Source: Eledone cirrhosa (taxonomy: Eukaryota). Taken from it: a stretch of 64,000 nt of DNA. Position numbers and translations under genes: made by a program. The stretch is from NCBI GenBank assembly GCA_964016885.1, contig OZ024762.1, forward strand, positions 26,536,001 to 26,600,000, read 5' to 3'. Positions 2,450-59,913 of this stretch are shown here, in pieces (the stretch's first letter is position 1; each line of letters begins with the position of its first letter). The notes under the pieces are model-generated. The model was not told the DNA's origin and ran no database searches. It worked only from the letters and a program-made list of their open reading frames with translations.

Positions 2450-2483
<34 letters not shown>

Positions 2484-2595
2484 TTGAAAAAAAATGAAAA
2501 CGAAATTTCATTTCTCACTCTTAGTATGGCACTTACTTAAATGTAAGTATGTATGTATACGTACATACATATATGTATACAGACGTACAGTAGCA

Positions 2596-2693
<98 letters not shown>

Positions 2694-2863
2694 TATACAC
2701 ATATGCATACAGGTACACATACATATATGCACGCATCAGTTTAGCCGACGTTTATTATAACGCCTGCTTTGTTCGTTTGTTTGTCAACAAATCGAACAGC
2801 CTGAATTTATGCCATACGGTGTTAAGGCAACCACGTCACCTTTTTGTTCAACACTTACACAGG

Positions 2864-2908
2864 AACGATGTACTAGTTTCAAGCTTGTTAGCTATCATCA
2901 CCACCGTT
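2864..2908 (-). ncRNA. Minimal type I hammerhead ribozyme, core mutated (GUGAUGA)
   Basis: Same as the 3402-3446 copy except C3 is changed to G. Confidence 0.65.
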
Positions 2909-3143
2909 TACCCATCTGCCAGATAGTTGAACGTTCGAAAGTATATACTTTCCTTATGAAAATTAACGGCTGAGCAGCCTAATTTGCATATTGAGTGAGT
3001 TAAATCGGTCAGGCATACCGAAAACGATAAGTTGAAATAAAATGAAAACGAAATTTCATTTCTCACTCTTAGTATGGCACTTACTTAAATGTAAGTATGT
3101 ATGTATACGTACATACATATATGTATACAGACGTACAGTAGCA

Positions 3144-3231
<88 letters not shown>

Positions 3232-3401
3232 TATACACATATGCATACAGGTACACATACATATATGCACGCATCAGTTTAGCCGACGTTTATTATAACG
3301 CCTGCTTTGTTCGTTTGTTTGTCAACAAATCGAACAGCCTGAATTTATGCCATACGGTGTTAAGGCAACCACGTCACCTTTTTGTTCAACACTGACACAG
3401 G

Positions 3402-3446
3402 AACGATGTACTAGTTTCAAGCTTGTTAGCTATCATCAGCACCGTT
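3402..3446 (-). ncRNA. Minimal type I hammerhead ribozyme
   Basis: Minus strand reads AACGGTG CTGATGA TAGCTAACAAGCTT GAAA CTAG TA CATCGTT: 7-bp stem I, intact core, stem II AGCT/AGCT, palindromic stem III ACTAGT, UA cleavage site. Confidence 0.85.
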
Positions 3447-3682
3447 TACCCATCTGCCAGATAGTTGAACGTTCGAAAGTATATACTTTCCTTATGAAAA
3501 TTAACGGCTGAGCAGCCTAATTTGCGTATTGTGTGAGTTAAATCGCTCAGGCATACCGAAAACGATAAGTTGAAAAAAAATGAAAACGAAATTTCATTTC
3601 TCACTCTTAGTATGGCACTTACTTAAATGTAAGTATGTATGTATACGTACATACATATATGTATACAGACGTACAGTAGCAA

Positions 3683-3725
<43 letters not shown>

Positions 3726-3963
3726 TATACACATATGCATACAGGTACACATACATATATGCACGCATCAGTTTAGCCGACGTTTATTATATCGCCACAT
3801 GTATATCTAATCACACGTACGTACGCGACTATATATATATATATATATATATACATACACACCCATACATACATATACATATACATATATATACATATAC
3901 ATATACATTCACCCACATACACACACACGTATAAATAAGTATGTAAAAAACATAGATATAAAA

Positions 3964-9257: not shown

Positions 9258-9310
9258 ATTTTATTATACATATTTCGGATGTACAACAGTACGTCATCAT
9301 CAGACAAAAT
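9258..9310 (-). ncRNA. Minimal hammerhead (family H), stem II partly decayed
   Basis: ATTTTGT CTGATGA TGACGTAC-tgtt-GTACATCC GAAA TATGTA TA ATAAAAT. Confidence 0.7.
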
Positions 9311-13203: not shown

Positions 13204-13806
13204 ATACTTTGGGAGGGTCATGTTGCCAATAAGAAACACACGCACCATTTGCTTTCACTTCAATTTATTATATATTTATAAATTTACAAATTTATAAATT
13301 TATAAATTTCTGGTTGGTTGGTTCCACAACCAGATAGTTGTTTATATATAGTCATAGTCCTTTCGTCACACTCTGTGACCTCTTCAGTGACTGGGGATTC
13401 CTTTCTTTGTTTCTGTGCCCCTCCTTTGTTCTGTCCTACGCTATTTTGTTTCTGTGTGTGTGTTGTGTGCTCAGTTTGCGCATGCGCCACATCCGCGTGT
13501 CTGTGTGTGTTTATGTTCATTTATCTATTTGTTTATTTATTTATTTATTTATTTACAGAGGTCACAGAGTGTGTGACGAAAGGACTATGACTATATATAA
13601 ACAACTATCTGGTTGTGGAACCAACCAACCAATCAGAAATTTATAAATTTATAAATTTGTAAATTTATAAATATATAATAAATTGAAGTGAAAGCATGGT
13701 GCGTGTGTTTCTTATTGGCAACATGACCCTCCCAAAGTATAACAATATCGGTTTCAACACACGATTTCAGATAAAGAATCTTGCTAAACAAATTCAGAAA
13801 CGAAAT
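13196..13806. mobile_element. Solo inverted PLE pseudo-LTR pair, same family as 39011-39460
   Basis: Arms 13196-13384 and 13557-13748 are inverted, with a tail to 13806; sequence matches the 3' region of the PLE at 39 kb. Confidence 0.85.
13350..13392 (-). ncRNA. Minimal type I hammerhead ribozyme in PLE pLTR
   Basis: AGTCA CTGAAGA G GTCACA-gag-TGTGAC GAAA GGAC TA TGACT: 5-bp stem I, 6-bp stem II, intact core. Confidence 0.88.
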
Positions 13807-13823
13807 ATATATATATATATATA

Positions 13824-18428: not shown

Positions 18429-18650
<222 letters not shown>

Positions 18651-19189: not shown

Positions 19190-19580
19190 AGCAGTGGATT
19201 GGTAGAGATTGGAGAGCAGTGGATAGCAGTATCGGCAGAGAGTCAGATGCCATGCTTTGCAGCATAGAGTTACGCCCCTTTACGGTCTGAATTCAAATCC
19301 CACCGAGGTTAACTTTGCCTTTCATCCTTACGGGGTCGATAAAATAAAGTACCAGTAATGCACTAGGATAATTGCTGGCCTTGTGCCAAAAGTAGAAACA
19401 ATTATTTAATATAAAAGATTGTTCTATATTAAATAATTGTTTCTACTTTTTGGCACAAGGCCAGCAATACGCCAGTGCATTACTGGTACTTTATTTTGCC
19501 GACTCCGTAAGGATATAAGGCAAAGCTAAACTCGGTGGGATTTGAACTCAGAAGTTAAAGCGCACTAACAGTATGCCACA
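19190..19580. mobile_element. Tail-to-tail SINE pair (19190-19406 +, 19432-19580 -)
   Basis: Two family copies in inverted orientation about 25 bp apart. Confidence 0.85.
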
Positions 19581-20685: not shown

Positions 20686-20874
20686 ATAGAACAATACTAC
20701 TATTCATATAATTCTATAATAAAAATGTCGGCTACCTCCAAATAGCTTCCATCATTCGTCTCTCAACTAATAACCTACGAGGAGGGCCAAGTGTTGTAGT
20801 TTTTTCGTCTCATATCATTTTAAATATTTCTATTCTTTAAACTACAAGGACGTTGTGTCGTCTTTCGGAAAACA

Positions 20875-23800
20875 AAGGGCGGATGATACTAGAATATTCT
20901 GGAGAAAATGTCGGCTACAGTGTAGAAAGGGCAGATGATACCAGAATATTCTGGAGAAAATGTCGGCTACTGTGTAGAAAGGCGGATGATACCAGAATAT
21001 TCTGGAGAAAATGACGGCTACAGTGTAGAAAGGGCGGATGATACCAGAATATTCTGGAGAAAATGTCGGCTACAGTGTAGAAAGGACGGATGATACCAGA
21101 ATATTCTGGAGAAAATGTCGGCTACAGTGTAGAAAGGACGGATGATACCAGAATATTCTGGAGAAAATGTCGGCTACAGTGTAGAAAGGGCGGATGATAC
21201 CAGAATATTCTGGAGAAAATGTCGGCTACAGTGTAGAAAGGACGGATGATACCAGAATATTCTGGAGAAAATGTCGGCTACAGTGTAGAAAGGACGGATG
21301 ATACCAGAATATTCTGGAGAAAATGTCGGCTACTGTGTAGAAAGGCGGATGATACCAGAATATTCTGGAGAAAATGTTGGTTGCAGTGTAGAAAGGGCGG
21401 ATGATACCAGAATATTCTGGAGAAAATGTCGGCTACAGTGTAGAAAGGACGGATGATACCAGAATATTCTGGAGAAAATGACGGCTACTGTGTAGAAAGG
21501 GCGGATGATACCAGAATATTCTGGAGAAAATGTTGGCTACAGTGTAGAAAGGGCGGATGATACCAGAATATTCTGGAGAAAATGTTGGTTGCAGTGTAGA
21601 AAGGGCGGATGATACCAGAATATTCTGGAGAAAATGTCGGCTACAGTGTAGAAAGTGCGGATGATACCAGAATATTCTGGAGAAAATGTCGGCTACAGTG
21701 TAGAAAGGGCGGATGATAACAGAATATTCTGGAGAAAATGTTGGTTGCAGTGTAGAAAGTGCGGATGATACCAGAATATTCTGGAGAAAATGTCGGCTAC
21801 AGTGTAGAAAGGGCGGATGATACCAGAATATTCTGGAGAAAATGTCGGCTACAGTGTAGAAAGGGCGGATGATACCAGAATGTTCTGGAGAAAATGTCGG
21901 CTACAGTGTAGAAAGGGCGGATGATACCAGAATATTCTGGAGAAAATGTCGGCTACAGTGTAGAAAGGGCGGATGTTACCAGAATATTCTGGAGAAAATG
22001 TCTGCTACTGTGTAGAAAGGGCGGATGATACCAGAATATTCTGGAGAAAATGTCTGCTACTGTGTAGAAAGTGCGGATGATACCAGAATATTCTGGAGAA
22101 AATGTCGGCTACAGTGTAGAAAGGGCGGATGATACCAGAATATTCTGGAGAAAATGACGGCTACAGTGTAGAAAGGGCGGATGATACCAGAATATTCTGG
22201 AGAAAATGACGGCTACAGTGTAGAAAGGGCGGATTATACCAGAATATTCCGGAGAAAATGTTGGCTACAGTGTAGAAAGGGCGGATGATACCAGAATATT
22301 CTGGAGAAAATGTCGGCTACAGTGTAGAAAGGGCGGATGATACCAGAATATTCTGGAGAAAATGTCGGCTACAGTGTAGAAAGGGCGGATGATACCAGAA
22401 TATTCTGGAGAAAATGTCGGCTACAGTGTAGAAAGGGCGGATGATACCAGAATATTCTGGAGAAAATGTCGGCTACAGTGTAGAAAGGGCGGATGATACC
22501 AGAATATTCTGGAGAAAATGTTGGCTACAGTGTAGAAAGGACGGATGATACCAGAATATTCTGGAGAAAATGTCGGCTACAGTGTAGAAAGGGCGGATGA
22601 TACCAGAATATTCTGGAGAAAATGTCGGCTACAGTGTAGAAAGGGCGGATGATACCAGAATATTCTGGAGAAAATGTCGGCTACAGTGTAGAAAGGGCGG
22701 ATGATACCAGAATATTCTGGAGAAAATGTCGGTTGCAGTGTAGAAAGGGCGGATGATACCAGAATATTCTGGAGAAAATGTCGGCTACAGTGTAGAAAGT
22801 GCGGATGATACCAGAATATTCCGGAGAAAATGTCGGTTGCAGTGTAGAAAGGACGGATGATACCAGAATATTCTGGAGAAAATGTCGGCTACAGTGTAGA
22901 AAGGGCGGATGATACCAGAATATTCTGGAGAAAATGTTGGTTGCAGTGTAGAAAGGACGGATGATACCAGAATATTCTGGAGAAAATGTCGGCTACAGTG
23001 TAGAAAGGGCGGATGATACCAGAATATTCCGGAGAAAATGTCGGTTGCAGTGTAGAAAGGACGGATGATACCAGAATATTCTGGAGAAAATGTCGGTTGC
23101 AGTGTAGAAAGGGCGGATGATACCAGAATATTCTGGAGAAAATGTCGGCTACAGTGTAGAAAGGGCGGATGATACCAGAATATTCCGGAGAAAATGTCGG
23201 TTGCAGTGTAGAAAGGGCGGATGATACCAGAATATTCTGGAGAAAATATTGGCTACAGTGTAGAAAGGGCGGATGATACCAGAATATTCTGGAGAAAATG
23301 TCGGCTACAGTGTAGAAAGGGCGGATGATACCAGAATATTCTGGAGAAAATGTCGGCTACAGTGTAGAAAGGGCGGATGATACCAGAATATTCTGGAGAA
23401 AATGTCGGTTGCAGTGTAGAAAGGGCGGATGATACCAGAATATTCTGGAGAAAATGTCGGTTGCAGTGTAGAAAGGGCGGATGATACCAGAATATTCTGG
23501 AGAAAATGTCGGCTACAGTGTAGAAAGGGCGGATGATACCAGAATATTCTGGAGAAAATATTGGCTACAGTGTAGAAAGGGCGGATGATACCAGAATATT
23601 CTGGAGAAAATGTCGGCTACAGTGTAGAAAGGGCGGATGATACCAGAATATTCTGGAGAAAATGTCGGCTACAGTGTAGAAAGGGCGGATGATACCAGAA
23701 TATTCTGGAGAAAATATTGGCTACAGTGTAGAAAGGGCGGATGATACCAGAATATTCTGGAGAAAATGTCGGTTGCAGTGTAGAAAGGGCGGATGATACC

Positions 23801-26800
23801 AGAATATTCTGGAGAAAATGTCGGCTACAGTGTAGAAAGGGCGGATGATACCAGAATATTCTGGAGAAAATGTCGGCTACAGTGTAGAAAGGGCGGATGA
23901 TACCAGAATATTCTGGAGAAAATATTGGCTACAGTGTAGAAAGGGCGGATGATACCAGAATATTCTGGAGAAAATATTGGCTACAGTGTAGAAAGGGCGG
24001 ATGATACCAGAATATTCTGGAGAAAATGTCGGCTACAGTGTAGAAAGGGCGGATGATACCAGAATATTCTGGAGAAAATGTTGGCTACAGTGTAGAAAGG
24101 ACGGATGATACCAGAATATTCTGGAGAAAATATTGGCTACAGTGTAGAAAGGGCGGATGATACCAGAATATTCTGGAGAAAATATTGGCTACAGTGTAGA
24201 AAGGGCGGATGATACCAGAATATTCTGGAGAAAATGTCGGCTACAGTGTAGAAAGGGCGGATGATACCAGAATATTCTGGAGAAAATGTCGGCTACAGTG
24301 TAGAAAGGGCGGATGATACCAGAATATTCTGGAGAAAATGTCGGCTACAGTGTAGAAAGGGCGGATGATACCAGAATATTCTGGAGAAAATGTCGGTTGC
24401 AGTGTAGAAAGGGCGGATGATACCAGAATATTCTGGAGAAAATGTCGGCTACAGTGTAGAAAGGGCGGATGATACCAGAATATTCTGGAGAAAATGTCGG
24501 CTACAGTGTAGAAAGGGCGGATGATACCAGAATATTCTGGAGAAAATATTGGCTACAGTGTAGAAAGGGCGGATGATACCAGAATATTCTGGAGAAAATA
24601 TTGGCTACAGTGTAGAAAGGGCGGATGATACCAGAATATTCTGGAGAAAATATTGGCTACAGTGTAGAAAGGGCGGATGATACCAGAATATTCTGGAGAA
24701 AATGTCGGCTACAGTGTAGAAAGGGCGGATGATACCAGAATATTCTGGAGAAAATGTCGGCTACAGTGTAGAAAGGGCGGATGATACCAGAATATTCTGG
24801 AGAAAATATTGGCTACAGTGTAGAAAGGGCGGATGATACCAGAATATTCTGGAGAAAATATTGGCTACAGTGTAGAAAGGGCGGATGATACCAGAATATT
24901 CTGGAGAAAATATTGGCTACAGTGTAGAAAGGGCGGATGATACCAGAATATTCTGGAGAAAATGTCGGCTACAGTGTAGAAAGGGCGGATGATACCAGAA
25001 TATTCTGGAGAAAATGTCGGCTACAGTGTAGAAAGGGCGGATGATACCAGAATATTCTGGAGAAAATATTGGCTACAGTGTAGAAAGGGCGGATGATACC
25101 AGAATATTCTGGAGAAAATGTCGGCTACAGTGTAGAAAGGGCGGATGATACCAGAATATTCTGGAGAAAATGTCGGCTACAGTGTAGAAAGGGCGGATGA
25201 TACCAGAATATTCTGGAGAAAATATTGGCTACAGTGTAGAAAGGGCGGATGATACCAGAATATTCTGGAGAAAATGTCGGCTACAGTGTAGAAAGGGCGG
25301 ATGATACCAGAATATTCTGGAGAAAATGTCGGCTACAGTGTAGAAAGGGCGGATGATACCAGAATATTCTGGAGAAAATGTCGGCTACAGTGTAGAAAGG
25401 GCGGATGATACCAGAATATTCTGGAGAAAATATTGGCTACAGTGTAGAAAGGGCGGATGATACCAGAATATTCTGGAGAAAATATTGGCTACAGTGTAGA
25501 AAGGGCGGATGATACCAGAATATTCTGGAGAAAATGTCGGCTACAGTGTAGAAAGGGCGGATGATACCAGAATATTCTGGAGAAAATGTCGGCTACAGTG
25601 TAGAAAGGGCGGATGATACCAGAATATTCTGGAGAAAATATTGGCTACAGTGTAGAAAGGGCGGATGATACCAGAATATTCTGGAGAAAATGTCGGCTAC
25701 AGTGTAGAAAGGGCGGATGATACCAGAATATTCTGGAGAAAATGTCGGCTACAGTGTAGAAAGGGCGGATGATACCAGAATATTCTGGAGAAAATGTCGG
25801 CTACAGTGTAGAAAGGGCGGATGATACCAGAATATTCTGGAGAAAATATTGGCTACAGTGTAGAAAGGGCGGATGATACCAGAATATTCTGGAGAAAATG
25901 TCGGCTACAGTGTAGAAAGGGCGGATGATACCAGAATATTCTGGAGAAAATATTGGCTACAGTGTAGAAAGGGCGGATGATACCAGAATATTCTGGAGAA
26001 AATGTCGGCTACAGTGTAGAAAGGGCGGATGATACCAGAATATTCTGGAGAAAATGTCGGCTACAGTGTAGAAAGGGCGGATGATACCAGAATATTCTGG
26101 AGAAAATGTCGGCTACAGTGTAGAAAGGGCGGATGATACCAGAATATTCTGGAGAAAATATTGGCTACAGTGTAGAAAGGGCGGATGATACCAGAATATT
26201 CTGGAGAAAATGTCGGCTACAGTGTAGAAAGGGCGGATGATACCAGAATATTCTGGAGAAAATATTGGCTACAGTGTAGAAAGGGCGGATGATACCAGAA
26301 TATTCTGGAGAAAATGTTGGCTACAGTGTAGAAAGGGCGGATGATACCAGAATATTCTGGAGAAAATGTCGGCTACTGTGTAGAAAGGGCGGATGATACC
26401 AGAATATTCTGGAGAAAATATTGGCTACAGTGTAGAAAGGGCGGATGATACCAGAATATTCTGGAGAAAATGTCGGCTACAGTGTAGAAAGGGCGGATGA
26501 TACCAGAATATTCTGGAGAAAATGTCGGCTACAGTGTAGAAAGGGCGGATGATACCAGAATATTCTGGAGAAAATGTCGGCTACAGTGTAGAAAGGGCGG
26601 ATGATACCAGAATATTCTGGAGAAAATGTCGGCTACAGTGTAGAAAGGGCGGATGATACCAGAATATTCTGGAGAAAATGTCGGCTACAGTGTAGAAAGG
26701 GCGGATGATACCAGAATATTCTGGAGAAAATATTGGCTACAGTGTAGAAAGGGCGGATGATACCAGAATATTCTGGAGAAAATGTCGGCTACAGTGTAGA

Positions 26801-29800
26801 AAGGGCGGATGATACCAGAATATTCTGGAGAAAATGTCGGCTACAGTGTAGAAAGGGCGGATGATACCAGAATATTCTGGAGAAAATGTCGGCTACAGTG
26901 TAGAAAGGGCGGATGATACCAGAATATTCTGGAGAAAATATTGGCTACAGTGTAGAAAGGGCGGATGATACCAGAATATTCTGGAGAAAATGTCGGCTAC
27001 AGTGTAGAAAGGGCGGATGATACCAGAATATTCTGGAGAAAATATTGGCTACAGTGTAGAAAGGGCGGATGATACCAGAATATTCTGGAGAAAATGTTGG
27101 CTACAGTGTAGAAAGGGCGGATGATACCAGAATATTCTGGAGAAAATGTCGGCTACTGTGTAGAAAGGGCGGATGATACCAGAATATTCTGGAGAAAATG
27201 TTGGCTACAGTGTAGAAAGGGCGGATGATACCAGAATATTCTGGAGAAAATGTCGGTTGCAGTGTAGAAAGGGCGGATGATACCAGAATATTCTGGAGAA
27301 AATGTCGGCTACTGTGTAGAAAGGGCGGATGATACCAGAATATTCTGGAGAAAATGTTGGCTACAGTGTAGAAAGGGCGGATGATACCAGAATATTCTGG
27401 AGAAAATGTCGGCTACTGTGTAGAAAGGGCGGATGATACCAGAATATTCTGGAGAAAATGTTGGCTACAGTGTAGAAAGGGCGGATGATACCAGAATATT
27501 CTGGAGAAAATGTCGGTTGCAGTGTAGAAAGGGCGGATGATACCAGAATATTCTGGAGAAAATGTCGGCTACAGTGTAGAAAGGGCGGATGATACCAGAA
27601 TATTCTGGAGAAAATGTCGGCTACAGTGTAGAAAGGGCGGATGATACCAGAATATTCTGGAGAAAATATTGGCTACAGTGTAGAAAGGGCGGATGATACC
27701 AGAATATTCTGGAGAAAATGTCGGCTACAGTGTAGAAAGGGCGGATGATACCAGAATATTCTGGAGAAAATATTGGCTACAGTGTAGAAAGGGCGGATGA
27801 TACCAGAATATTCTGGAGAAAATGTTGGCTACAGTGTAGAAAGGGCGGATGATACCAGAATATTCTGGAGAAAATGTCGGCTACAGTGTAGAAAGGGCGG
27901 ATGATACCAGAATATTCTGGAGAAAATGTTGGCTACAGTGTAGAAAGTGCGGATGATACCAGAATATTCTGGAGAAAATGTCGGCTACAGTGTAGAAAGT
28001 GCGGATGATACCAGAATATTCTGGAGAAAATGTCGGTTGCAGTGTAGAAAGGGCGGATGATACCAGAATATTCTGGAGAAAATATCGGTTGCAGTGTAGA
28101 AAGGGCGGATGATACCAGAATATTCTGGAGAAAATATCGGTTGCAGTGTAGAAAGGGCGGATGATACCAGAATATTCTGGAGAAAATGTCGGTTGCAGTG
28201 TAGAAAGGGCGGATGATACCAGAATATTCTGGAGAAAATGTCGGTTGCAGTGTAGAAAGGGCGGATGATACCAGAATATTCTGGAGAAAATATCGGTTGC
28301 AGTGTAGAAAGGGCGGATGATACCAGAATATTCTGGAGAAAATGTCGGTTGCAGTGTAGAAAGGGCGGATGATACCAGAATATTCTGGAGAAAATGTCGG
28401 CTACAGTGTAGAAAGGGCGGATGATACCAGAATATTCTGGAGAAAATATCGGTTGCAGTGTAGAAAGGGCGGATGATACCAGAATATTCTGGAGAAAATG
28501 TCGGCTACAGTGTAGAAAGGGCGGATGATACCAGAATATTCTGGAGAAAATGTCGGTTGCAGTGTAGAAAGGGCGGATGATACCAGAATATTCTGGAGAA
28601 AATGTTGGCTACAGTGTAGAAAGGGCGGATGATACCAGAATATTCTGGAGAAAATGTCGGTTGCAGTGTAGAAAGGGCGGATGATACCAGAATATTCTGG
28701 AGAAAATGTCGGCTACAGTGTAGAAAGGGCGGATGATACCAGAATATTCTGGAGAAAATGTCGGCTACAGTGTAGAAAGGGCGGATGATACCAGAATATT
28801 CTGGAGAAAATGTCGGCTACAGTGTAGAAAGGGCGGATGATACCAGAATATTCTGGAGAAAATGTCGGTTGCAGTGTAGAAAGGGCGGATGATACCAGAA
28901 TATTCTGGAGAAAATATCGGTTGCAGTGTAGAAAGTGCGGATGATACCAGAATATTCTGGAGAAAATGTCGGTTGCAGTGTAGAAAGGGCGGATGATACC
29001 AGAATATTCTGGAGAAAATATCGGTTGCAGTGTAGAAAGGGCGGATGATACCAGAATATTCTGGAGAAAATATCGGTTGCAGTGTAGAAAGGGCGGATGA
29101 TACCAGAATATTCTGGAGAAAATGTCGGTTGCAGTGTAGAAAGGGCGGATGATACCAGAATATTCTGGAGAAAATGTCGGTTGCAGTGTAGAAAGGGCGG
29201 ATGATACCAGAATATTCTGGAGAAAATGTCGGTTGCAGTGTAGAAAGGGCGGATGATACCAGAATATTCTGGAGAAAATATCGGTTGCAGTGTAGAAAGG
29301 GCGGATGATACCAGAATATTCTGGATAAAATGTCGGCTAAAGTGTAGAAAGGGCGGATGATACCAGAATATTCTGGAGAAAATGTCGGCTAAAGTGTAGA
29401 AAGGGCGGATGATACCAGAATATTCTGGATAAAATATCGGTTGCAGTGTAGAAAGGGCGGATAATACCAGAATATTCTGGAGAAAATATCGGTTGCAGTG
29501 TAGAAAGGGCGGATGATACCAGAATATTCTGGATAAAATGTCGGCTAAAGTGTAGAAAGGGCGGATGATACCAGAATATTCTGGAGAAAATGTCGGTTGC
29601 AGTGTAGAAAGGGCGGATGATACCAGAATATTCTGGAGAAAATATCGGTTGCAGTGTAGAAAGTGCGGATGATACCAGAATATTCTGGAGAAAATGTCGG
29701 TTGCAGTGTAGAAAGGGCGGATGATACCAGAATATTCTGGAGAAAATGTCGGCTAAAGTGTAGAAAGGGCGGATGATACCAGAATATTCTGGATAAAATA

Positions 29801-32800
29801 TCGGTTGCAGTGTAGAAAGGGCGGATAATACCAGAATATTCTGGAGAAAATATCGGTTGCAGTGTAGAAAGGGCGGATGATACCAGAATATTCTGGATAA
29901 AATGTCGGCTAAAGTGTAGAAAGGGCGGATGATACCAGAATATTCTGGAGAAAATGTCGGTTGCAGTGTAGAAAGGGCGGATGATACCAGAATGTTCTGG
30001 AGAAAATGTCGGCTACAGTGTAGAAAGGGCGGATGATACCAGAATATTGTGGAGAAAATGTCGGCTACAGTGTAGAAAGGGCGGATGATACCAGAATATT
30101 GTGGAGAAAATGTCGGCTACAGTGTAGAAAGGGCGGATGATACCAGAATATTGTGGAGAAAATGTCGGCTACAGTGTAGAAAGGGCGGATGATACCAGAA
30201 TATTCTGGAGAAAATGTCGGCTACTGTGTAGAAAGGGCGGATGATACCAGAATATTCTGGAGAAAATGTCGGCTACAGTGTAGAAAGGGCGGATGATACC
30301 AGAATATTGTGGAGAAAATGTTGGCTACAGTGCAGAAAGGGCGGATGATACCAGAATATTCTGGAGAAAATGTCGGCTACAGTGCAGAAAGGGCGGATGA
30401 TACCAGAATATTCTGGAGAAAATGTCGGCTACAGTGTAGAAAGGGCGGATGATACCAGAATATTCTGGAGAAAATGTCGGCTAGTGTAGAAAGGGCGGAT
30501 GATACCAGAATATTCTGGAGAAAATGTCGGTTGCAGTGTAGAAAGTGCGGATGATACCAGAATATTCTGGAGAAAATGTCGGCTACAGTGTAGAAAGGGC
30601 GGATGATACCAGAATATTCTGGAGAAAATGTCGGCTACAGTGTAGAAAGGGCGGATGATACCAGAATATTCTGGAGAAAATGTCGGTTGCAGTGTAGAAA
30701 GGGCGGATGATACCAGAATATTCTGGAGAAAATATCGGTTGCAGTGTAGAAAGGGCGGATGATACCAGAATATTCTGGAGAAAATGTCGGTTGCAGTGTA
30801 GAAAGGGCGGATGATACCAGAATATTCTGGAGAAAATGTCGGTTGCAGTGTAGAAAGGGCGGATGATACCAGAATATTCTGGAGAAAATGTCGGCTAAAG
30901 TGTAGAAAGGGCGGATGATACCAGAATATTCTGGATAAAATATCGGTTGCAGTGTAGAAAGGGCGGATAATACCAGAATATTCTGGAGAAAATATCGGTT
31001 GCAGTGTAGAAAGGGCGGATGATACCAGAATATTCTGGATAAAATGTCGGCTAAAGTGTAGAAAGGGCGGATGATACCAGAATATTCTGGAGAAAATGTC
31101 GGTTGCAGTGTAGAAAGGGCGGATGATACCAGAATATTCTGGAGAAAATATCGGTTGCAGTGTAGAAAGGGCGGATGATACCAGAATATTCTGGAGAAAA
31201 TGTCGGTTGCAGTGTAGAAAGGGCGGATGATACCAGAATATTCTGGAGAAAATGTCGGTTGCAGTGTAGAAAGGGCGGATGATACCAGAATATTCTGGAG
31301 AAAATGTCGGCTAAAGTGTAGAAAGGGCGGATGATACCAGAATATTCTGGATAAAATATCGGTTGCAGTGTAGAAAGGGCGGATAATACCAGAATATTCT
31401 GGAGAAAATATCGGTTGCAGTGTAGAAAGGGCGGATGATACCAGAATATTCTGGATAAAATGTCGGCTAAAGTGTAGAAAGGGCGGATGATACCAGAATA
31501 TTCTGGAGAAAATGTCGGTTGCAGTGTAGAAAGGGCGGATGATACCAGAATGTTCTGGAGAAAATGTCGGCTACAGTGTAGAAAGGGCGGATGATACCAG
31601 AATATTGTGGAGAAAATGTCGGCTACAGTGTAGAAAGGGCGGATGATACCAGAATATTGTGGAGAAAATGTCGGCTACAGTGTAGAAAGGGCGGATGATA
31701 CCAGAATATTGTGGAGAAAATGTCGGCTACAGTGTAGAAAGGGCGGATGATACCAGAATATTCTGGAGAAAATGTCGGCTACTGTGTAGAAAGGGCGGAT
31801 GATACCAGAATATTCTGGAGAAAATGTCGGCTACAGTGTAGAAAGGGCGGATGATACCAGAATATTGTGGAGAAAATGTTGGCTACAGTGCAGAAAGGGC
31901 GGATGATACCAGAATATTCTGGAGAAAATGTCGGCTACAGTGCAGAAAGGGCGGATGATACCAGAATATTCTGGAGAAAATGTCGGCTACAGTGTAGAAA
32001 GGGCGGATGATACCAGAATATTCTGGAGAAAATGTCGGCTAGTGTAGAAAGGGCGGATGATACCAGAATATTCTGGAGAAAATGTCGGTTGCAGTGTAGA
32101 AAGGGCGGATGATACCAGAATATTCTGGAGAAAATGTCGGTTGCAGTGTAGAAAGGGCGGATGATACCAGAATATTCTGGAGAAAATATCGGTTGCAGTG
32201 TAGAAAGGGCGGATGATACCAGAATATTCTGGAGAAAATGTCGGTTGCAGTGTAGAAAGGGCGGATGATACCAGAATATTCTGGAGAAAATGTCGGTTGC
32301 AGTGTAGAAAGGGCGGATGATACCAGAATATTCTGGAGAAAATGTCGGCTAAAGTGTAGAAAGGGCGGATGATACCAGAATATTCTGGATAAAATATCGG
32401 TTGCAGTGTAGAAAGGGCGGATAATACCAGAATATTCTGGAGAAAATATCGGTTGCAGTGTAGAAAGGGCGGATGATACCAGAATATTCTGGATAAAATG
32501 TCGGCTAAAGTGTAGAAAGGGCGGATGATACCAGAATATTCTGGAGAAAATGTCGGTTGCAGTATAGAAAGGGCGGATGATACCAGAATGTTCTGGAGAA
32601 AATGTCGGCTACAGTGTAGAAAGTGCGGATGATACCAGAATATTCTGGAGAAAATGTCGTTTGCAGTGTAGAAAGGGCGGATGATACCAGAATATTCTGG
32701 AGAAAATGTCGGCTACAGTGTAGAAAGGGCGGGTGATACCAGAATATTCTGGAGAAAATATTGGCTACAGTGTAGAAAGGGCGGATGATACCAGAATATT

Positions 32801-35740
32801 CTGGAGAAAATGTCGGTTGCAGTGTAGAAAGGGCGGATGATACCAGAATATTCTGGAGAAAATGTCGGCTACAGTGTAGAAAGGGCGGATGATACCAGAA
32901 TATTGTGGAGAAAATGTTGGCTACAGTGTAGAAAGGGCGGATGATACCAGAATATTCTGGAGAAAATATCGGTTGCAGTGTAGAAAGGGCGGATGATACC
33001 AGAATATTCTGGAGAAAATGTCGGCTACAGTGTAGAAAGGGCGGATGATACCAGAATATTCTGGAGAAAATGTCGGCTACAGTGTAGAAAGGGCGGATGA
33101 TACCAGAATATTCTGGAGAAAATGTCGGTTGCAGTGTAGAAAGGGCGGATGATACCAGAATATTCTGGAGAAAATGTTGGCTACAGTGTAGAAAGGGCGG
33201 ATGATACCAGAATATTCTGGAGAAAATATCGGTTGCAGTGTAGAAAGGGCGGATGATACCAGAATATTCTGGAGAAAATGTCGGCTACAGTGTAGAAAGG
33301 GCGGATGATACCAGAATATTCTGGAGAAAATGTCGGTTGCAGTGTAGAAAGGGCGGATGATACCAGAATATTCTGGAGAAAATGTTGGCTACAGTGTAGA
33401 AAGGGCGGATGATACCAGAATATTCTGGAGAAAATATCGGTTGCAGTGTAGAAAGGGCGGATGATACCAGAATATTCTGGAGAAAATGTCGGCTACAGTG
33501 TAGAAAGGGCGGATGATACCAGAATATTCTGGAGAAAATGTCGGTTGCAGTGTAGAAAGGGCGGATGATACCAGAATATTCTGGAGAAAATGTTGGCTAC
33601 AGTGTAGAAAGGGCGGATGATACCAGAATATTCTGGAGAAAATGTCGGTTGCAGTGTAGAAAGGGCGGATGATACCAGAATATTCTGGAGAAAATGTCGG
33701 CTACAGTGTAGAAAGGGCGGATGATACCAGAATATTCTGGAGAAAATGTCGGCTACAGTGTAGAAAGGGCGGATGATACCAGAATATTCTGGAGAAAATG
33801 TCGGTTGCAGTGTAGAAAGGGCGGATGATACCAGAATATTCTGGAGAAAATATCGGTTGCAGTGTAGAAAGTGCGGATGATACCAGAATATTCTGGAGAA
33901 AATGTCGGTTGCAGTGTAGAAAGGGCGGATGATACCAGAATATTCTGGAGAAAATGTCGGCTAAAGTGTAGAAAGGGCGGATGATACCAGAATATTCTGG
34001 AGAAAATGTTGGCTACAGTGTAGAAAGTGCGGATGATACCAGAATATTCTGGAGAAAATGTCGGTTGCAGTGTAGAAAGGGCGGATGATACCAGAATATT
34101 CTGGAGAAAATGACGGCTACTGTGTAGAAAGGGCGGATGATACCAGAATATTCTGGAGAAAATGTTGGCTACAGTGTAGAAAGTGCGGATGATACCAGAA
34201 TATTCTGGAGAAAATGTCGGTTGCAGTGTAGAAAGGGCGGATGATACCAGAATATTCTGGAGAAAATGTCGGCTACAGTGTAGAAAGGGCGGATGATACC
34301 AGAATATTGTGGAGAAAATGTTGGCTACAGTGTAGAAAGGGCGGATGATACCAGAATATTCTGGAGAAAATGTCGGCTACAGTGTAGAAAGGGCGGATGA
34401 TACCAGAATATTGTGGAGAAAATGTTGGCTACAGTGTAGAAAGGGCGGATGATACCAGAATATTCTGGAGAAAATGTCGGCTACAGTGTAGAAAAGGCGG
34501 ATGATACCAGAATATTCTGGAGAAAATGACGGCTACTGTGTAGAAAGGGCGGATGATACCAGAATTTTCTGGAGAAAATGTCGGCTACAGTGTAGAAAAG
34601 GCGGATGATACCAGAATATTCTGGAGAAAATGTCGGCTACAGTGTAGAAAGGGCGGATGATACCAGAATTTTCTGGAGAAAATGTCGGCTACAGTGTAGA
34701 AAGGGCGGATGATACCAGAATTTTCTGGAGAAAATGTCGGCTACAGTGTAGAAAGGGCGGATGATACCAGAATTTTCTGGAGAAAATGTTGGCTACTGTG
34801 TAGAAAAGGCGGATGATACCAGAATATTCTGGAGAAAATGACGGCTACTGTGTAGAAAGGGCGGATGATACCAGAATATTCTGGAGAAAATGACGGCTAC
34901 TGTGTAGAAAGGGCGGATGATACCAGAATTTTCTGGAGAAAATGTCGGCTACAGTGTAGAAAGGGCGGATGATACCAGAATATTCTGGAGAAAATGTTGG
35001 CTACAGTGTAGAAAGGGCGGATGATACCAGAATATTCTGGAGAAAATGTTGGCTACAGTGTAGAAAGGGCGGATGATACCAGAATATTCTGGAGAAAATG
35101 TCGGCTACAGTGTAGAAAGGGCGGATGATACCAGAATATTCTGGAGAAAATGTCGGCTACTGTGTAGAAAGGGCGGATGATACCAGAATATTCTGGAGAA
35201 AATGTTGGCTACTGTGTAGAAAGGGCAGATGATACCAGAATATTCTGGAGAAAATGTCGGCTACTGTGTAGAAAGGGCGGATGATACCAGAATATTCTGG
35301 AGAAAATGTTGGCTACTGTGTAGAAAGGGCAGATGATACCAGAATATTCTGGAGAAAATGTCGGCTACTGTGTAGAAAGGGCGGATGATACCAGAATATT
35401 GTGGAGAAAATGTCGGCTACAGTGTAGAAAGGGCGGATGATACCAGAATATTGTGGAGAAAATGTCGGCTACAGTGTAGAAAGGACGGATGATACCATAA
35501 TATTCTGGAGAAAATGTCGGCTACAGTGTAGAAAGGACGGATGATACCAGAATATTGTGGAGAAAATGTCGGCTACAGTGTAGAAAGGGCGGATGATACC
35601 AGAATATTGTGGAGAAAATGTCGGCTACAGTGTAGAAAGGACGGATGATACCAGAATATTCTGGAGAAAATGTCGGCTACAGTGTAGAAAGGGATATGAT
35701 ACCATAATATTCTGGAGAAAATGTCGGCTACAATGTAGAA
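20875..35740. repeat. 52-bp satellite array, roughly 285 copies
   Basis: Consensus GAAAATGTCGGCTACAGTGTAGAAAGGGCGGATGATACCAGAATATTCTGGA; contains the 14-bp palindrome CCAGAATATTCTGG; few point variants. Confidence 0.98.
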
Positions 35741-40823: not shown

Positions 40824-41001
40824 GTTATTCCGGGTTGAAACGGAGGTAACCACAGTAAGTAAGGTACTCAATACATAGCAGAGTATAACAGTTTTAATAT
40901 AGAAGAGATTCTACAGGACTAGAACTGTTTCATTCATAAGAAATCATCAGGATTCCTGATGATTTCTTATGAATGAAACAATTCTAGTCCTGTAGAATCT
41001 C

Positions 41002-41040: not shown

Positions 41041-41996
41041 AATGGAAAAAATGAAACGAAATTTCATTTCTCACTCTTAGTACGACTGTTACTTAAATAA
41101 GTATGTATACGTACATACATATAAGTATGCAGACGTACAGTAGTATGTATATATATACATGCATGCACACATATATAGTAAGTACGTATGGATTCACCGA
41201 ACATTTATTATAATGCTAGGTTTTTTTGTAAACAAACATCCCGAATTAAGCCGTACAGTGTGTAGCAACCATCGTTGCCCATTTATTCAATACTGACAAA
41301 GGAACGATGTACTAGTTTCAAGCTTATTAGCTATCGTCAGCACTCTATAGCTTCCTGCCAGATGATTGAACGTCTGAAAGCATATACTTTCCGTATGCAT
41401 ATTAACGTATCAGCAGCCTAATTTGCATATCGAGTGAGTTTTTCGGCTGGGCGCACCAAAAACGATAATTGGAATAAATGAAACGAAATTCCATTTCTCA
41501 TTCTTAGTACGGCTGTTACTTAAATATAAGTATGTATACGTACATACATATATGTATACATACGTACAGTAATATGTATATATATACATACATGCACACA
41601 TATCTATATGTACGTATGGATTCACCGAACTTTTATAATAATGCTCGGTTTGTTTGTAAACAAACATCCCGAAGTAAGCCGTACATTGTTTAGCAACCAT
41701 CGTTGCCATTTATTCAACACTGACAAAGGAACGATGAACTAGTTTCAAGCTTATTAGCTATCGGCAGCACCGTATACATTTCTGCCAGATGATTGAACGT
41801 CTGAAAGTATACTTTCCTTATGCATAATTAACGGCTGGGCAGCCTAATTTGCATATCGAGTGAGTTTATCGGCCGGGCGCACCGAAAACGATAAATGGAA
41901 TAAATGAAACGAAATTTCATTTCTCACTCTTAGTACGGCTTTTACTTAAATATAAGTATGTATACGTACACACATATATGTATACATACGTACAGT
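41041..41996 (-). mobile_element. Retrozyme-like tandem array 2 (~427-bp unit, ~2.2 copies)
   Basis: Units near 41041, 41467 and 41894; homologous to 2481-3790; HHR motifs at 41303-41347 (CTGACGA intact, weak stem I) and 41730-41774 (CTGCCGA mutated). Confidence 0.8.
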
Positions 41997-43211: not shown

Positions 43212-44416
43212 TCAGTAATAAGACTGTCTAAGACAGAGGTTAAACTAGCTGTCAAGTTAAGCCCCGCCTGAGAGGATTCACCACCAATGAGACTGTCTAA
43301 GGCAGAGGTTAAACTAGCTGTCAAGTTAAGCCCCACCTGAGAGGAGTGACCACAAATAAGACTGTCTAAGACAGAGGTTAAACTAGCTGTCAAGTTAAGC
43401 CCCACCTGAGAGGAGTGACCACCAATAAGACTGTCTAAGGCAGAGGTTAAACTAGCTGTCAAGTTAAGCCCCACCTGAAAGGAGTCACCACCAATAAGAC
43501 TGTCTAAGGCAGAGGTTAAACTAGCTGTCAAGTTAAGCCCCACCTGAGAGGAGTGACCACCAATAAGACTGTCTAAGACAGAGGTTAAACTAGCTGTCAA
43601 GTTAAGCCCCGCCTGAGAGGAGTGACCACCAATAAGACTGTCTAAGACAGAGGTTAAACTAGCTGTCAAGTTAAGCCCCACCTGAGAGGAGTCACCACCA
43701 ATGAGACTCTCTAAGGCAGAGGTTAAACTAGCTGTCAAGTTAAGCCCCGCCTGAGAGGAGTGACCACCAATAAGACTGTCTAAGACAGAGGTTAAACTAG
43801 CTGTCAAGTTAAGCCCCAACTGAGAGGAGTCACCACCAATAAGACTGTCTAAGACAGAGGTTAAACTAGCTGTCAAGTTAAGCCCCACCTGAGAGGAGTC
43901 ACCACCAATAAGACTGTCTAAGACAGAGGTTAAACTAGCTGTCAAGTTAAGCCCCAACTGAGAGGAGTCACCACCAATAAGACTGTCTAAGACAGAGGTT
44001 AAACTAGCTGTCAAGTTAAGCCCCACCTGAGAGGAGTCACCACCAATAAGACTGTCTAAGACAGAGGTTAAACTAGCTGTCAAGTTAAGCCCCACCTGAG
44101 AGGAGTCACCACCAATAAGACTGTCTAAGACAGAGGTTAAACTAGCTGTCAAGTTAAGCCCCACCTGAGAGGAGTCACCACCAATAAGACTGTCTAAGAC
44201 AGAGGTTAAACTAGCTGTCAAGTTAAGCCCCACCTGAGAGGAGTCACCACCAATAAGACTGTCTAAGACAGAGGTTAAACTAGCTGTCAAGTTAAGCCCC
44301 AACTGAGAGGAGTCACCACCAATAAGACTGTCTGAGCCAGAAGTAAAACTCGGTGTCAAGTTAATCCCCTGCTGAGTGGAGCCACCACCAATAAGACTGT
44401 CTGAGTCAGAGCTCAT
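43212..44416 (-). repeat. 66-bp minisatellite (~18 copies), open on the minus strand as a 22-aa repeat LDSLIGGDSSQVGLNLTASLTSV
   Basis: Tandem unit directly visible; ORF 42971-44416; coding status unproven. Confidence 0.9.
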
Positions 44417-56520: not shown

Positions 56521-59500
56521 TCAGATATTCAGGACGTATCGGAGGGTTCTTGCCGTTCCAAGCAAGCATGCCTTTTGAAGCGTTCCAAAAAGCGTGAAGG
56601 GGCCGATTTTCTTTAACCATCCCTGGAAACCTTTGGAGATAGTCCCCAGTGCGCCTATGACAATCGGGATCACTTTGACTTCATGGCAGTTCCAAATCCT
56701 TTTCACCTCCCACTTTAGGTCCTGGTATCGGTTAATTTTCTCCCTCTCCTTCTCTTGCACTCTCGTGTCGAACGGGCAGGCCACATCCACAATCAGGCAC
56801 GATCTTTTTTCTTTGTCCACAACCACCAGGTCAGGTCTATTGTGTTCCAGTTTTTTGTCCGTCTGTATCCTAAAATCCCACAGCACCTTCACCTGATTGT
56901 TCTCCATCACCGCCTCTGGCCTATGCTCATACCATTTCTCAGAATGTGGTAGATTGTTTACTTTGCACAGGTGCCAGTGGATCACCCTGCCCATCACATC
57001 GTGTCTCCGGCCCTTATAGTGGGTCTGGGCTAGGTGTTTACACTCGGACACAATGTGAGCTACAGTCTCCTCTCTCTCTCCACAGATCCTGCACAGTGGG
57101 CTAGCCTCCTCCTTGTAGATATGGTGCTTCAACCACTTCGTTTTGAGGGCCTGCTCCTGCGCAGCCATTAGCATTCCTTCTGTAGCCTTTTTGAGGTCTC
57201 CTCTTCTCAACCAGTTCCATGTCTGTGGATCTCTAAATTCAGTTTTCTCAAAGAAGGTACTATGAAGGGATTTTCCCTTAAGGCTGCTCTTCCTCCTTGA
57301 TGTTATTTCCTCCTTGGGTATCCCCTGGCCTACTGTCCCCTCCTTCAGTACAGCTCTGAGCATTGGCTCCTTACTATAGGTCACGTATTTGTATAGGTTG
57401 TTTTTCTCCATCTGAACACAGTCCTCTATGCTGATAAGACCTCTTCCACCCTCAGATCTCCTTAGGTAGAGTCTATCGACATCACTCCTCTTGTGGAACA
57501 TGTTGTAGATAGTCAATAGCTTCCTAGTCTTCCTATCCATTTCTTTTTGTTCAGCAACATTCCATCTCAGAATTCCCGCACTGTACCTAATAATAGACAC
57601 AGCTCGGGAATTTACTGCGCTTATGGCATTTCTGCTGTTCAGATGTGACTTCAATACGCTCCTTACTCTCCGAATGTATTCAGTTCTTAACAATTCCTTC
57701 ATTTTTTTGTTCTTTATGCCATCAGCCTCCAGAACGCCCAAATACTTGTATCCTTCCTCAGAGTCAATTTCCTTTATCATCTCACCTGTTGGTATCTGGA
57801 TCCCGTTACTTCTGCTCAACCTACCCCTCCTCATCACAATGACTCCACATTTACCAATACCAAACTGCATACATATATCACTGCTGAAAATACGGACAGT
57901 GTCAACAAGCACATCCAACTCCTTCTCACTTTTCCCGAAGAGCTTAAGGTCGTCCATGAAGAGGAGGTGATTGATGGTAAGCTCTCCCCTTCCCAACTTG
58001 TATCCTGCTCTCACTTTTCGCAGCATAATGGTCAAGGGCATCAGGGCAAGGACAAACAACAGAGGGGACAGGCTATCTCCCTGGAAGATACCTCTCTTGA
58101 TCTTCACGCTTCCCAAGGATACTCCAGTTGATGTCAACTCTGTCTCCCAGGACCCCATACTCCTGCCCAGCAACTGTCTGATGTTATCTGCCACCCTGAA
58201 GATCTCCAGGCTTTTGGTGATCCAGGAATGAGGCACCATGTCAAATGCCTTTCTGTAGTCTATCCATCCCATGGCAAGATCAGTGTGTCTCCTCCTGCAA
58301 TTCCCCATTACCATCTTATCAATAAGCAACTGGTCCTTTGTACCACGTGACTTCTTTCGGCATCCTTTCTGTTCGTCCGGCAACAAGTTGTTTGTGTGGA
58401 GGTGATGGTAGATTTCCTCAGACACAATGCTCGTCAACAGTTTCCACATTACGGGCAGACATGTGATAGGTCTATAGTTGGTGACATCATTACCCTTGAT
58501 TTGGTCTTTCATTATCAGAACTGTGGTACCTTTTGTCAACCACTCTGGCACCTCACCCGACACCAAGCAGTCATTGAACATGGCCGTCAGCTTCGGGTGG
58601 AGGGATGTTAAATGTTTAATCCAATACCCCTGCACACCATCTGGGCCTGGTGATTTCCAGTTGGTTAGTTTTTTGGCTTGCCCCTTAAGAGTTTCAACTG
58701 TGATACTCAAATCAGTCTGTTGCTGTGCCTGCTCACCGATCTCCCTCTGTACTGTCTCAATCCACCCTGCCTGGGCATTGTGTCTAACATCCTGCTCCCA
58801 TATTCCTCTCCAGAATGTTTTAGCTTGTTCCGCCCCAGGGATCAAGTCGGTGCCTCTTTCTTTCCCCTCAAGCTGTCCAAACAGCATCTTCTGGTTGTTG
58901 TCGAACATGCGGTTCTGTTTATACTGACTGACTCTGTTCTCGTATCGCCTGATTTTGGCACTCTTTGCTACAATGCGTTGCTTCAATTCCTCTATGATAA
59001 TATTTAGCTTTTTACTCCTAGTTTTGTATTTTATTTCCAGTCTATTTTTAGTGCCTATGTTTTTTAGTGTCCCATTCAGTAGTGACTCAAGCTTTCCTAT
59101 GTCATTTCTCATTTCCCCGATTTGCCCACTCAGTCGCTTCTTCCACCACGGCTCTGCTCTTTCTTGTCTGTTGTTTCCTCTCGCTTTTATACCAAGTAGT
59201 TTCCTCACCGTATTTGCTGTTGCTTTGAGGATATTGTTGCACTGGTGAAGACTCCTCGCCTCAAGGTATGGGATGACTTTGTTTACCTTAGCTGTTGTTT
59301 CTTTTAACTTTTTCCTGTCTACAAATCTTAGGTTCATAGGTCTCCCACTATCATTGTTCAACTCATCTACCACTAAATTTAGGATGTCAACCGAATCTTG
59401 TCCTAGCCCGTCAGCATTCATCTCCTCAGTGGCCGTATCTCTGTTCCAGGTATTATTTATCTCAGTATTCAGATCATTGTCTGCTTCGGGTGGTTCCTTC

Positions 59501-59913
59501 GCTCTCAGGACCTCCTCACCTTCATTTCCCGCCGGCTCGCTTGTCTGGCATACTACACCCGCCATCTCCAAGCCATTCTCTCTGCTCAGTTCCTCCAGTT
59601 CCAGCTCGCTTATCCACCCATTAGTTCTTATTACCCGAGCCTGCCCGGCCAATTTTTGTTCATCTAATTTAAATAAACCAATCTCGTTCCAGATGTTATG
59701 CATCCGTCTCCTGTAGCCCCTCTCCTTGGGGTTACTTTTCAGGTAGCATTGCATAACAGTTCTATTCAATTCTTTCGTCCAGTTGGTTCTGGCCCCTTTC
59801 CTTCTTCTTCTTCCTCCAACATCAGCAGTATTTCGTTGACAGTCAGGTTCCTGCTGCTGAGCCAGGGGGCACCTGTTGGGTGAGAGTCTGTCACATGACG
59901 TTCTAGTCTCCAT
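56521..59913 (-). CDS. Dong/R4-type non-LTR retrotransposon ORF (RT + CCHC + restriction-like endonuclease), 1130 aa, uninterrupted
   Basis: KSPGPDG, NYRPITCL, WIDYRKAFDMVPH, GIFQGDSLSPLLF, LFMDDLKL, YKYLG, CRICGEREETVAHIVSEC, RHD, RPDLVV..DVACP..EKINRY, PIVIGALG; 3' UTR 56445-56520 ends in (CAA)(TAA)n. Confidence 0.95.
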   Translation of the reverse strand: METRTSCDRLSPNRCPLAQQQEPDCQRNTADVGGRRRRKGARTNWTKELNRTVMQCYLKSNPKERGYRRRMHNIWNEIGLFKLDEQKLAGQARVIRTNGWISELELEELSRENGLEMAGVVCQTSEPAGNEGEEVLRAKEPPEADNDLNTEINNTWNRDTATEEMNADGLGQDSVDILNLVVDELNNDSGRPMNLRFVDRKKLKETTAKVNKVIPYLEARSLHQCNNILKATANTVRKLLGIKARGNNRQERAEPWWKKRLSGQIGEMRNDIGKLESLLNGTLKNIGTKNRLEIKYKTRSKKLNIIIEELKQRIVAKSAKIRRYENRVSQYKQNRMFDNNQKMLFGQLEGKERGTDLIPGAEQAKTFWRGIWEQDVRHNAQAGWIETVQREIGEQAQQQTDLSITVETLKGQAKKLTNWKSPGPDGVQGYWIKHLTSLHPKLTAMFNDCLVSGEVPEWLTKGTTVLIMKDQIKGNDVTNYRPITCLPVMWKLLTSIVSEEIYHHLHTNNLLPDEQKGCRKKSRGTKDQLLIDKMVMGNCRRRHTDLAMGWIDYRKAFDMVPHSWITKSLEIFRVADNIRQLLGRSMGSWETELTSTGVSLGSVKIKRGIFQGDSLSPLLFVLALMPLTIMLRKVRAGYKLGRGELTINHLLFMDDLKLFGKSEKELDVLVDTVRIFSSDICMQFGIGKCGVIVMRRGRLSRSNGIQIPTGEMIKEIDSEEGYKYLGVLEADGIKNKKMKELLRTEYIRRVRSVLKSHLNSRNAISAVNSRAVSIIRYSAGILRWNVAEQKEMDRKTRKLLTIYNMFHKRSDVDRLYLRRSEGGRGLISIEDCVQMEKNNLYKYVTYSKEPMLRAVLKEGTVGQGIPKEEITSRRKSSLKGKSLHSTFFEKTEFRDPQTWNWLRRGDLKKATEGMLMAAQEQALKTKWLKHHIYKEEASPLCRICGEREETVAHIVSECKHLAQTHYKGRRHDVMGRVIHWHLCKVNNLPHSEKWYEHRPEAVMENNQVKVLWDFRIQTDKKLEHNRPDLVVVDKEKRSCLIVDVACPFDTRVQEKEREKINRYQDLKWEVKRIWNCHEVKVIPIVIGALGTISKGFQGWLKKIGPFTLFGTLQKACLLGTARTLRYVLNI

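Follow-up and report, generated by a model that had tools for sequence, protein, structure and literature searches.

A hammerhead retrozyme-type tandem family with Penelope-like insertion anatomy in the genome of Eledone cirrhosa

How animal retrozymes return to the genome is an open question, for which Penelope-like elements (PLEs) have been proposed on the basis of co-occurrence and pLTR homology (PMC7229834; 10.64898/2026.07.22.740005; here and below, publications are cited for the parts of them that were covered). The window analysed here, by which the whole 64-kb stretch of DNA from this genome of 3.0 Gb is meant, holds three copies of a tandem hammerhead repeat and raises the same question for a concrete locus: from which template were these copies made, and by which kind of enzyme were they inserted? 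It is considered highly probable that the family is a retrozyme with Penelope-type insertion in trans. The fuller account, in which a non-coding tandem element of retrozyme type was inserted into (TA)n by a PLE enzyme, probably while copying round a circular RNA, is somewhat favoured.

The copies in the window and their predicted ribozyme

The copies and their hammerheads, all on the minus strand, were located as follows.

2482..3796 (5' end ~3791-3796), minus strand: array A, single-armed, ~2.4 units, subfamily A
2482..2541, minus strand: 3' tail of array A, the ~60 nt between the long end and the short end of other copies
2482..3028, minus strand: unit A1, 547 bp, with an internal (TA)n tract and a broken hammerhead core (C3 to G)
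2871..2901, minus strand: hammerhead core of A1, C3G, predicted inactive
3029..3567, minus strand: unit A2, 539 bp, with an internal (TA)n tract and an intact hammerhead
3385..3469, minus strand: hammerhead of A2, type I with extended stem I, core 3409-3439
13824..~13920, minus strand: fragment C, a strongly 5'-truncated copy consisting of the tail and ~40 nt
~41041..41996, minus strand: array B, single-armed, ~2.2 units of ~427 bp, long 3' end at (TA)n
41310..41340, minus strand: hammerhead core of B1, intact, predicted cut between 41310 and 41309
41737..41767, minus strand: hammerhead core of B2, A6 changed and GUU site, predicted impaired

The first-pass annotation had described two head-to-tail arrays of one non-coding family, and the alignment agrees: the units of 539-547 bp in array A and of ~427 bp in array B align together, and with fragment C they form one family whose common left end against (TA)n, likewise noted at that stage, is recovered in all three insertions. 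The units follow directly upon one another with no spacer, their GC content is 0.32-0.38, and no open reading frame of at least 120 aa was found over arrays A and B. Array A has its long 3' end at 2482, adjoining (TA)n, and is 5'-truncated at the opposite end, where a third, partial unit lies beyond 3567; a hairpin and a T run are found inside its 3' tail. Array B comprises two units of ~427 bp and one partial unit, and its subfamily is the older-looking one, with ~68-70 differences from subfamily A over the part of the unit that was compared. The left end previously given for fragment C, 13824, was correct, but the fragment runs to ~13920 rather than to 13900 and contains no hammerhead. Its insertion site is the (TA)n run that terminates a Penelope-like element, namely the 3' end (13560-13810) of a PLE family with a 60-nt tail, in which the tail encodes the first codons of the frame. 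All three window copies are single-armed and carry the long end, and head-to-head copies are absent from the window. The ~35 nt of unique sequence that separate the 5' end of array A from the next (TA)n (3797-3829) were present in one of 278 loci, the window's own.

A minus-strand type I hammerhead with a palindromic stem III had been claimed for each full unit. The motif is indeed present in all four full units, but the core is intact in only two of them (3410-3439 and 41311-41340), and in neither window array do intact ribozymes follow one another. In a PLE hammerhead, the change seen in A1 (C3G) has been shown to abolish cleavage (PMC11167929). Li et al. regard an array as 'active' when it has two intact hammerheads in succession, and many other arrays are of this kind, for example at locus L061-62, where all 11 of the 11 units are identical. 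The hammerhead is made up of a 6-bp stem I followed by an internal loop and then a long outer stem, a CUGANGA core, a 4-bp stem II on a U.U base, GAAA, the palindromic stem III and a GUA site. With this architecture it is a ribozyme of the canonical metazoan type and not of the minimal, pLTR-type kind that had been supposed, while the predicted cut in A2, between 3409 and 3408, is the same as previously given when the hammerhead is read on the minus strand. A strict hammerhead pattern matched twice in the window and in none of 100 shuffles. Since the Rfam matches listed for the window (150 of 172) included no hammerhead family and were microRNA models on TA repeats, support for the hammerhead comes from the motif, its covariation and its conservation.

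Genome-wide, the exact 30-nt core occurs in 24,602 copies, compared to none for the reversed control, and at this number of exact cores the family is a sizeable part of the genome; a pattern aimed at relatives of the hammerhead with a different stem II still matched this family (28,512 matches) and was uninformative on relatives. The upstream 26-nt motif has 16,113 genomic copies, and cores were intact at 25 of 30 loci picked by this motif, several of these loci lying in one array. At 100 loci picked by the 3' end, and thus independently of the core, the 12 catalytic positions mismatched in 10/1234 cases in subfamily A, compared to 452/18434 outside the ribozyme, and in 14/872 cases in subfamily B, compared to 524/12172 outside. 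A comparison of core and flanks had been set beforehand as a possible refutation, and the core proved the better conserved, with 1 of 31 core positions differing between an A unit and a B-type unit as against 61 of 203 outside it (Fisher p 0.0008). Stem I covaries, with G-U, U-G and A-U at one pair and A-U and U-G at another, and 97.3% of the cells in the ribozyme alignment pair, compared to 32-43% in slid controls; these cells are not independent and the independent events are few, the set being 64 of 85 distinct ribozyme regions after exclusion of 5'-truncated, gapped and some near-duplicate rows. The locus samples come mainly from contig C1, and some loci overlap or are duplicated (L093). 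Sequence comparison thus indicates that the hammerhead core is under selection across the family.

In the monomer, stem III has one pair only, round a palindromic tetraloop, and the best fold of the hammerhead region is an inactive one (-28.9 kcal/mol, compared to -16.5 kcal/mol for the stem-III form), while the palindrome can pair with itself at -4.8 kcal/mol. Owing to the weak monomer stem III, the inactive best monomer fold and the self-pairing palindrome, cleavage as a dimer is the likely mode of this predicted hammerhead, and such cleavage is known for canonical metazoan hammerheads (PMC4209133; PMC7229834). The 81-nt hammerhead folds no better than shuffles, the 95-nt hammerhead region gave z -3.3 for A2 and z -1.6 for B1, and circular folds of the unit reached z -5.8 to -11.9 (25 shuffles), scores that are inflated by the internal TA hairpin.

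Insertion anatomy and Penelope-like elements

The assumption of one fixed 3' end did not survive the sampling of further loci in the genome: the family has two 3' ends, ~60 nt apart and both in (TA)n, and the window holds three long-end copies by chance. Among the first 100 cores listed, 41 pairs of neighbouring cores were less than 1 kb apart, with 30 of them tandem, 11 head-to-head and none tail-to-tail. Inverted arrangements made up 40 of 78 clusters (63 stretches), a sample that is biased to multi-copy loci and includes duplicated pairs in L093; where both ends of an inverted cluster could be classed, a long end was paired with a short one in 30 of 31 cases, and (TA)n adjoined 97 of the 102 classed ends. 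The second sample, drawn by the long end alone, consisted of 100 loci taken from the top of the lists of 701 A-type and 4,282 B-type matches, two rows being skipped as already sampled or adjacent. Here, 60 loci proved inverted and 33 single-armed, 5 extended beyond the edge and 2 were without an arm. The opposite end of the 60 inverted loci was short in 42 and long in none, with 10 unclassed, some of which are probably TA-rich false matches, and 8 off the edge.

The 5' ends are scattered across the unit, as expected from the variable 5' truncation described for the window copies. Four of 153 were positioned within 6 nt of the cut, where the chance estimate is 4-5, and no excess was found among the 153 ends at the cut site or at the predicted start site; an excess at the unit start is probably an alignment-boundary artefact. 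The unit boundary was crossed by 41 of 98 long arms, which reach up to at least 10 units, and the remaining 57 stay within one unit. Given that the 5' ends ignore the cut and that 41 of the 98 long arms extend past a unit boundary, a cleaved linear monomer was not the template, and the earlier idea of a template spanning several uncut ribozymes is supported.

One copy in a non-TA target has a 9-nt TSD. At L088 a chimera between the unit and a PLE was considered and rejected, as comparison with further copies of the PLE concerned revealed a simple nested insertion that had duplicated 9 nt. At three inverted insertions (L061-62, L076 and L080-81), the host flank beyond (TA)n is also duplicated in inverted orientation, which suggests fold-back at the target.

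The combination of one long and one short end, head-to-head arms and (TA)n targets corroborates the Penelope-type insertion that had been suggested for this family. The 'tail' of PLEs is common in and unique to these elements and has been mapped to two internal RT start sites (PMC11167929), Penelope insertions show head-to-head arms with the tail on one arm and TSDs of 8-10 bp (PMC3846280), and in the Penelope layout one of the two arms placed head-to-head may bear a 3' tail (PMC3846280; 10.1101/2021.04.23.441226). Many PLE fragments are present in this genome. One coding PLE family, which has GIY-YIG at the C-terminus of its frame and whose end motif occurs 27,554 times, displays a long and a short end in 9 of 10 head-to-head pairs, with the ends ~60 nt apart in (TA)n, while other PLE families here have tails of ~80, 88 and 100 nt. 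Because its tail length matches, this GIY-YIG family is the best candidate helper and may serve as a lead; it shares no sequence with the unit, no similarity to its 3' region being found (best E 0.02, over 12 nt). Pfam did not recognise most of the PLE fragments, and their assignment is based on motifs and on Atlas leads in which 11-27% of members carry GIY-YIG.

Two other origins have to be weighed against insertion of a retrozyme in trans. The unit could be the pLTR, or a recent pLTR derivative, of an unsampled coding PLE, with the arrays representing truncated partial tandems. All insertion marks are of PLE type, as this would predict, and among the 22 known TEs with a match to Xenopus retrozyme families, 21 were PLEs, the match lying at their pLTRs (10.64898/2026.07.22.740005). 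This origin is nevertheless held to be improbable: none of the 33 single-armed copies has a PLE frame joined at the unit start (three PLE-like frames near copies end 537-1749 nt from the truncated ends), the arrays have no spacer between units, and the hammerheads at PLE ends in this genome are of another sequence and shape than that of the unit. Moreover, comparison of the unit with the 3' regions of two PLE families revealed no similarity, and a pLTR origin from these families was rejected. The annotation had named the unit proving to be such a pLTR as a refutation; the unit was not found as one in ~180 clusters inspected of many thousands, a sample in which a rare coding master could be missed, and the sampled copies, with no coding frame attached, conform to a non-autonomous family.

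The unit could also be a hammerhead satellite or SINE-like repeat that was spread by a LINE, by an element with a restriction-like endonuclease or by DNA duplication, its TA ends simply reflecting a TA-rich genome. In favour of this, (TA)n is plentiful in the genome, the window includes an intact RT frame of 1141 aa belonging to another non-LTR type, and four inverted clusters have duplicated flanks or are themselves duplicates. Such a spread would, however, leave unexplained the two exact 3' ends, the pairing of long with short ends and the head-to-head polarity, insertion marks that are all matched by the coding PLE family in this genome, and is regarded as very improbable. Inversions that arise by twin priming of LINEs have a single 3' end.

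Promoter motifs, template and route of copying

The units of array A carry two motifs upstream of the ribozyme, again on the minus strand.

2979..2990 in A1 and 3517-3528 in A2 (one mismatch), minus strand: U6-promoter-like upstream element, 12 nt
2941..2948 in A1 and 3479-3486 in A2, minus strand: TATA-like box, 42 nt after the upstream element

The 12-nt element together with the TATA box was found in all four of the host U6 upstream regions examined (four genes at three distinct loci, out of 12 retrieved from a list of 48), compared to none of three for U2. Both motifs at the spacing of the unit occurred in 1 of 20,000 shuffles; this spacing is 42 nt in the unit as against 46-48 nt in host U6, and the TATA box is altered in both window B units. 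The predicted transcription start is at unit position 112-117, just ahead of the ribozyme. A run of 6-8 T closes the unit in most copies; polymerase III would terminate there, so that production of a monomer would need read-through. The host U6 genes (L155-L166) include a tandem cluster on contig C19 with a period of ~1.8 kb, and their upstream element, at -77 to -79, is octamer-like and absent from that place in U2 genes.

Contigs of datasets X5 and X6 contain pieces of the unit, and no reads of the RNA run X7 fell on 3240-3680 in the ~12% of the run that was covered, without an organism control. In subfamily A, A>G substitutions outnumber T>C (39 vs 16; p 0.004, uncorrected), but in subfamily B the two counts are 19 and 18, and a skew is seen for G>T as well, so that there is only a hint of RNA-editing scars.

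The favoured account, in which a PLE enzyme copies round a circular RNA, could proceed as follows. Transcription from the U6-like promoter of one unit would extend into the following unit; two hammerheads would pair via their palindromic stem III and excise a monomer, and a host ligase would close this monomer into a circle, with an expected size of ~420-430 nt for the B-type and ~465-540 nt for the A-type. A Penelope-type protein would then cut a (TA)n run, and reverse transcription would begin inside the RNA at two start sites, one per DNA strand, the enzyme running round the template for a variable length before the two cDNAs join at their truncated ends. New arrays would thereby regain an upstream promoter, and this could account for the need of the element to be tandem.

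The array of 11 identical units and the arms of at least 10 units suit rolling round a circle. On the other hand, three arrays alternate two unit variants, clearly so at L090 (13 differences) and weakly at L078 and L080-81, and one monomer circle cannot yield such alternation, which calls for a circle of two units, a linear multimer or subsequent duplication. Penelope-type insertion from a linear, uncleaved read-through multimer, with the ribozyme acting elsewhere and the long arrays being partly due to later duplication, would accommodate these alternating variants, the 57 of 98 long arms that stay within one unit and a monomer fold that disfavours cleavage. It would also accord with the in vitro behaviour of the Poseidon enzyme, which used uncleaved RNA and inserted ribozyme mutants equally well (PMC11167929); in vitro cleavage was obtained for one of nine predicted retrozyme dimers in a recent study (10.64898/2026.07.22.740005). 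If the polymerase is polymerase III, however, at least 10 near-identical units would, we infer, need read-through of many T runs, the catalytic core is kept across subfamilies, so that cleavage would seem to matter for spread, and coral, mussel and axolotl retrozymes accumulate in circular form (PMC7229834). The linear multimer is given some weight, though it ranks on the unlikely side.

Copying round a circle, the favoured account, can be given a more specific and decidedly tentative form. A self-promoting RNA circle without pLTR kinship would mimic the two start sites used by the enzyme of the PLE with the 60-nt tail, which would copy monomer and dimer circles on both strands of a cut (TA)n, and tandem insertion would regenerate the U6-like promoter. 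If this is true, rolling-circle reverse transcription has left a record that can be read in every insertion, and an enzyme and a template that match would be at hand for showing the movement of an animal retrozyme. With the two predicted start sites mapped to a few bases, the proposed mobilisation of animal retrozymes by PLEs becomes testable with purified protein and a 480-nt RNA.

Relation to published elements and neighbouring repeats

On genomic criteria the element is an animal non-LTR retrozyme, for which cleavage and circles are predicted: it has tandem units with one type I hammerhead each, is non-coding, shows no LTR architecture and has a GC content below 45-50%, and it bears marks of mobility in the form of dispersed copies, fixed 3' ends, 5' truncation and the single 9-nt TSD. 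The unit of 420-550 bp is slightly above the 150-450 bp of one published range (PMC7229834) and within the 51-972 bp of another (10.64898/2026.07.22.740005). The retrozymes of coral, mussel and axolotl (PMC7229834) likewise have a canonical type I hammerhead in each short tandem unit, low GC, no LTR, arrays from dimers to long multimers and a highly paired predicted circle, and they lack a PBS or PPT; axolotl HHR_Amex1 shares the one-pair stem III with a palindromic tetraloop, and HHR_Amex2 the U.U mismatch at the base of stem II. Their RNAs, in contrast, measure 170-400 nt, the expandable (TA)n hairpin in the unit is a feature of the present family unlike those described there, and circles and cleavage have been shown for them whereas they are predicted here. 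Mobilisation by PLEs is proposed in that work, which in the parts covered reports neither a tail nor head-to-head arms. The vertebrate retrozymes of Li, Clavereau and Pollet 2026 (10.64898/2026.07.22.740005) are likewise non-autonomous hammerhead tandems, which co-occur with PLEs and are proposed users of PLE enzymes. The basis there is co-occurrence and pLTR homology, mostly in vertebrates and, in the parts covered, without a mollusc, whereas here it is insertion anatomy, and pLTR homology was not found in the two PLE families tested.

With the GIY-YIG PLEs (PMC11167929; PMC3846280; 10.1101/2021.04.23.441226) the family has in common the optional 3' tail on one arm, inverted head-to-head 5'-truncated arms, partial tandems, (TA)n or AT-rich targets, a TSD of ~9 bp where visible and a hammerhead in the repeat. 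It differs from the published PLEs in having no ORF, a tail of ~60 nt instead of 30-40 nt, and a canonical instead of a minimal hammerhead. Newt satellite 2 and the schistosome hammerhead satellite (as cited in PMC2220036) are likewise hammerhead tandems with a promoter inside the unit, of the snRNA type for polymerase II in the newt and for polymerase III in the schistosome, while the motifs of the putative promoter here match the upstream region of host U6. What appears to be new is the presence of a Penelope tail and head-to-head arms on a non-coding retrozyme, footprints that offer unusually clear genomic evidence for the proposed Penelope-driven route. The literature searched, with most subscription papers and two relevant supplements outside its scope, yielded no account uniting retrozyme, Penelope and head-to-head insertion. 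Within the same limits, where supplements could bear on novelty, it yielded none of such repeats in cephalopods, in line with the earlier remark that no description was known in this lineage.

Another hammerhead family in tandem arrangement, its unit measuring 310 bp, was met at L081:3140-4500 and L066:1-1400. It has the same U.U base of stem II, a different palindromic stem III, an inverted arm and (TA)n ends, and the U6-like element was not found in it. A PLE 3' end at L080:7300-7420 has a hammerhead-like core that begins with CAGAAGA instead of CUGANGA. Within the window, seven other type I hammerhead motifs, at 6615, 40485 and 40956 on the plus strand and at 9303, 13387, 14264 and 40721 on the minus strand, belong to other repeat families, several of them at Penelope-like ends, and a head-to-head pair adjoins array B at 40905-41000. 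The 1141-aa non-LTR retrotransposon frame mentioned above is uninterrupted, carries RVT_1 and lies at 56521-59946 on the minus strand; its C-terminal region resembles a restriction-like endonuclease. The window further contains a 52-bp satellite at 20874-35740 (286 copies, 96% match) and a 69-bp minisatellite at 43217-44411 (17 copies). Long near-palindromic stretches with weak matches to microRNA models are found at 19299-19539 and 18573-18638, the former of which has the look of two inverted copies of a short, abundant repeat.
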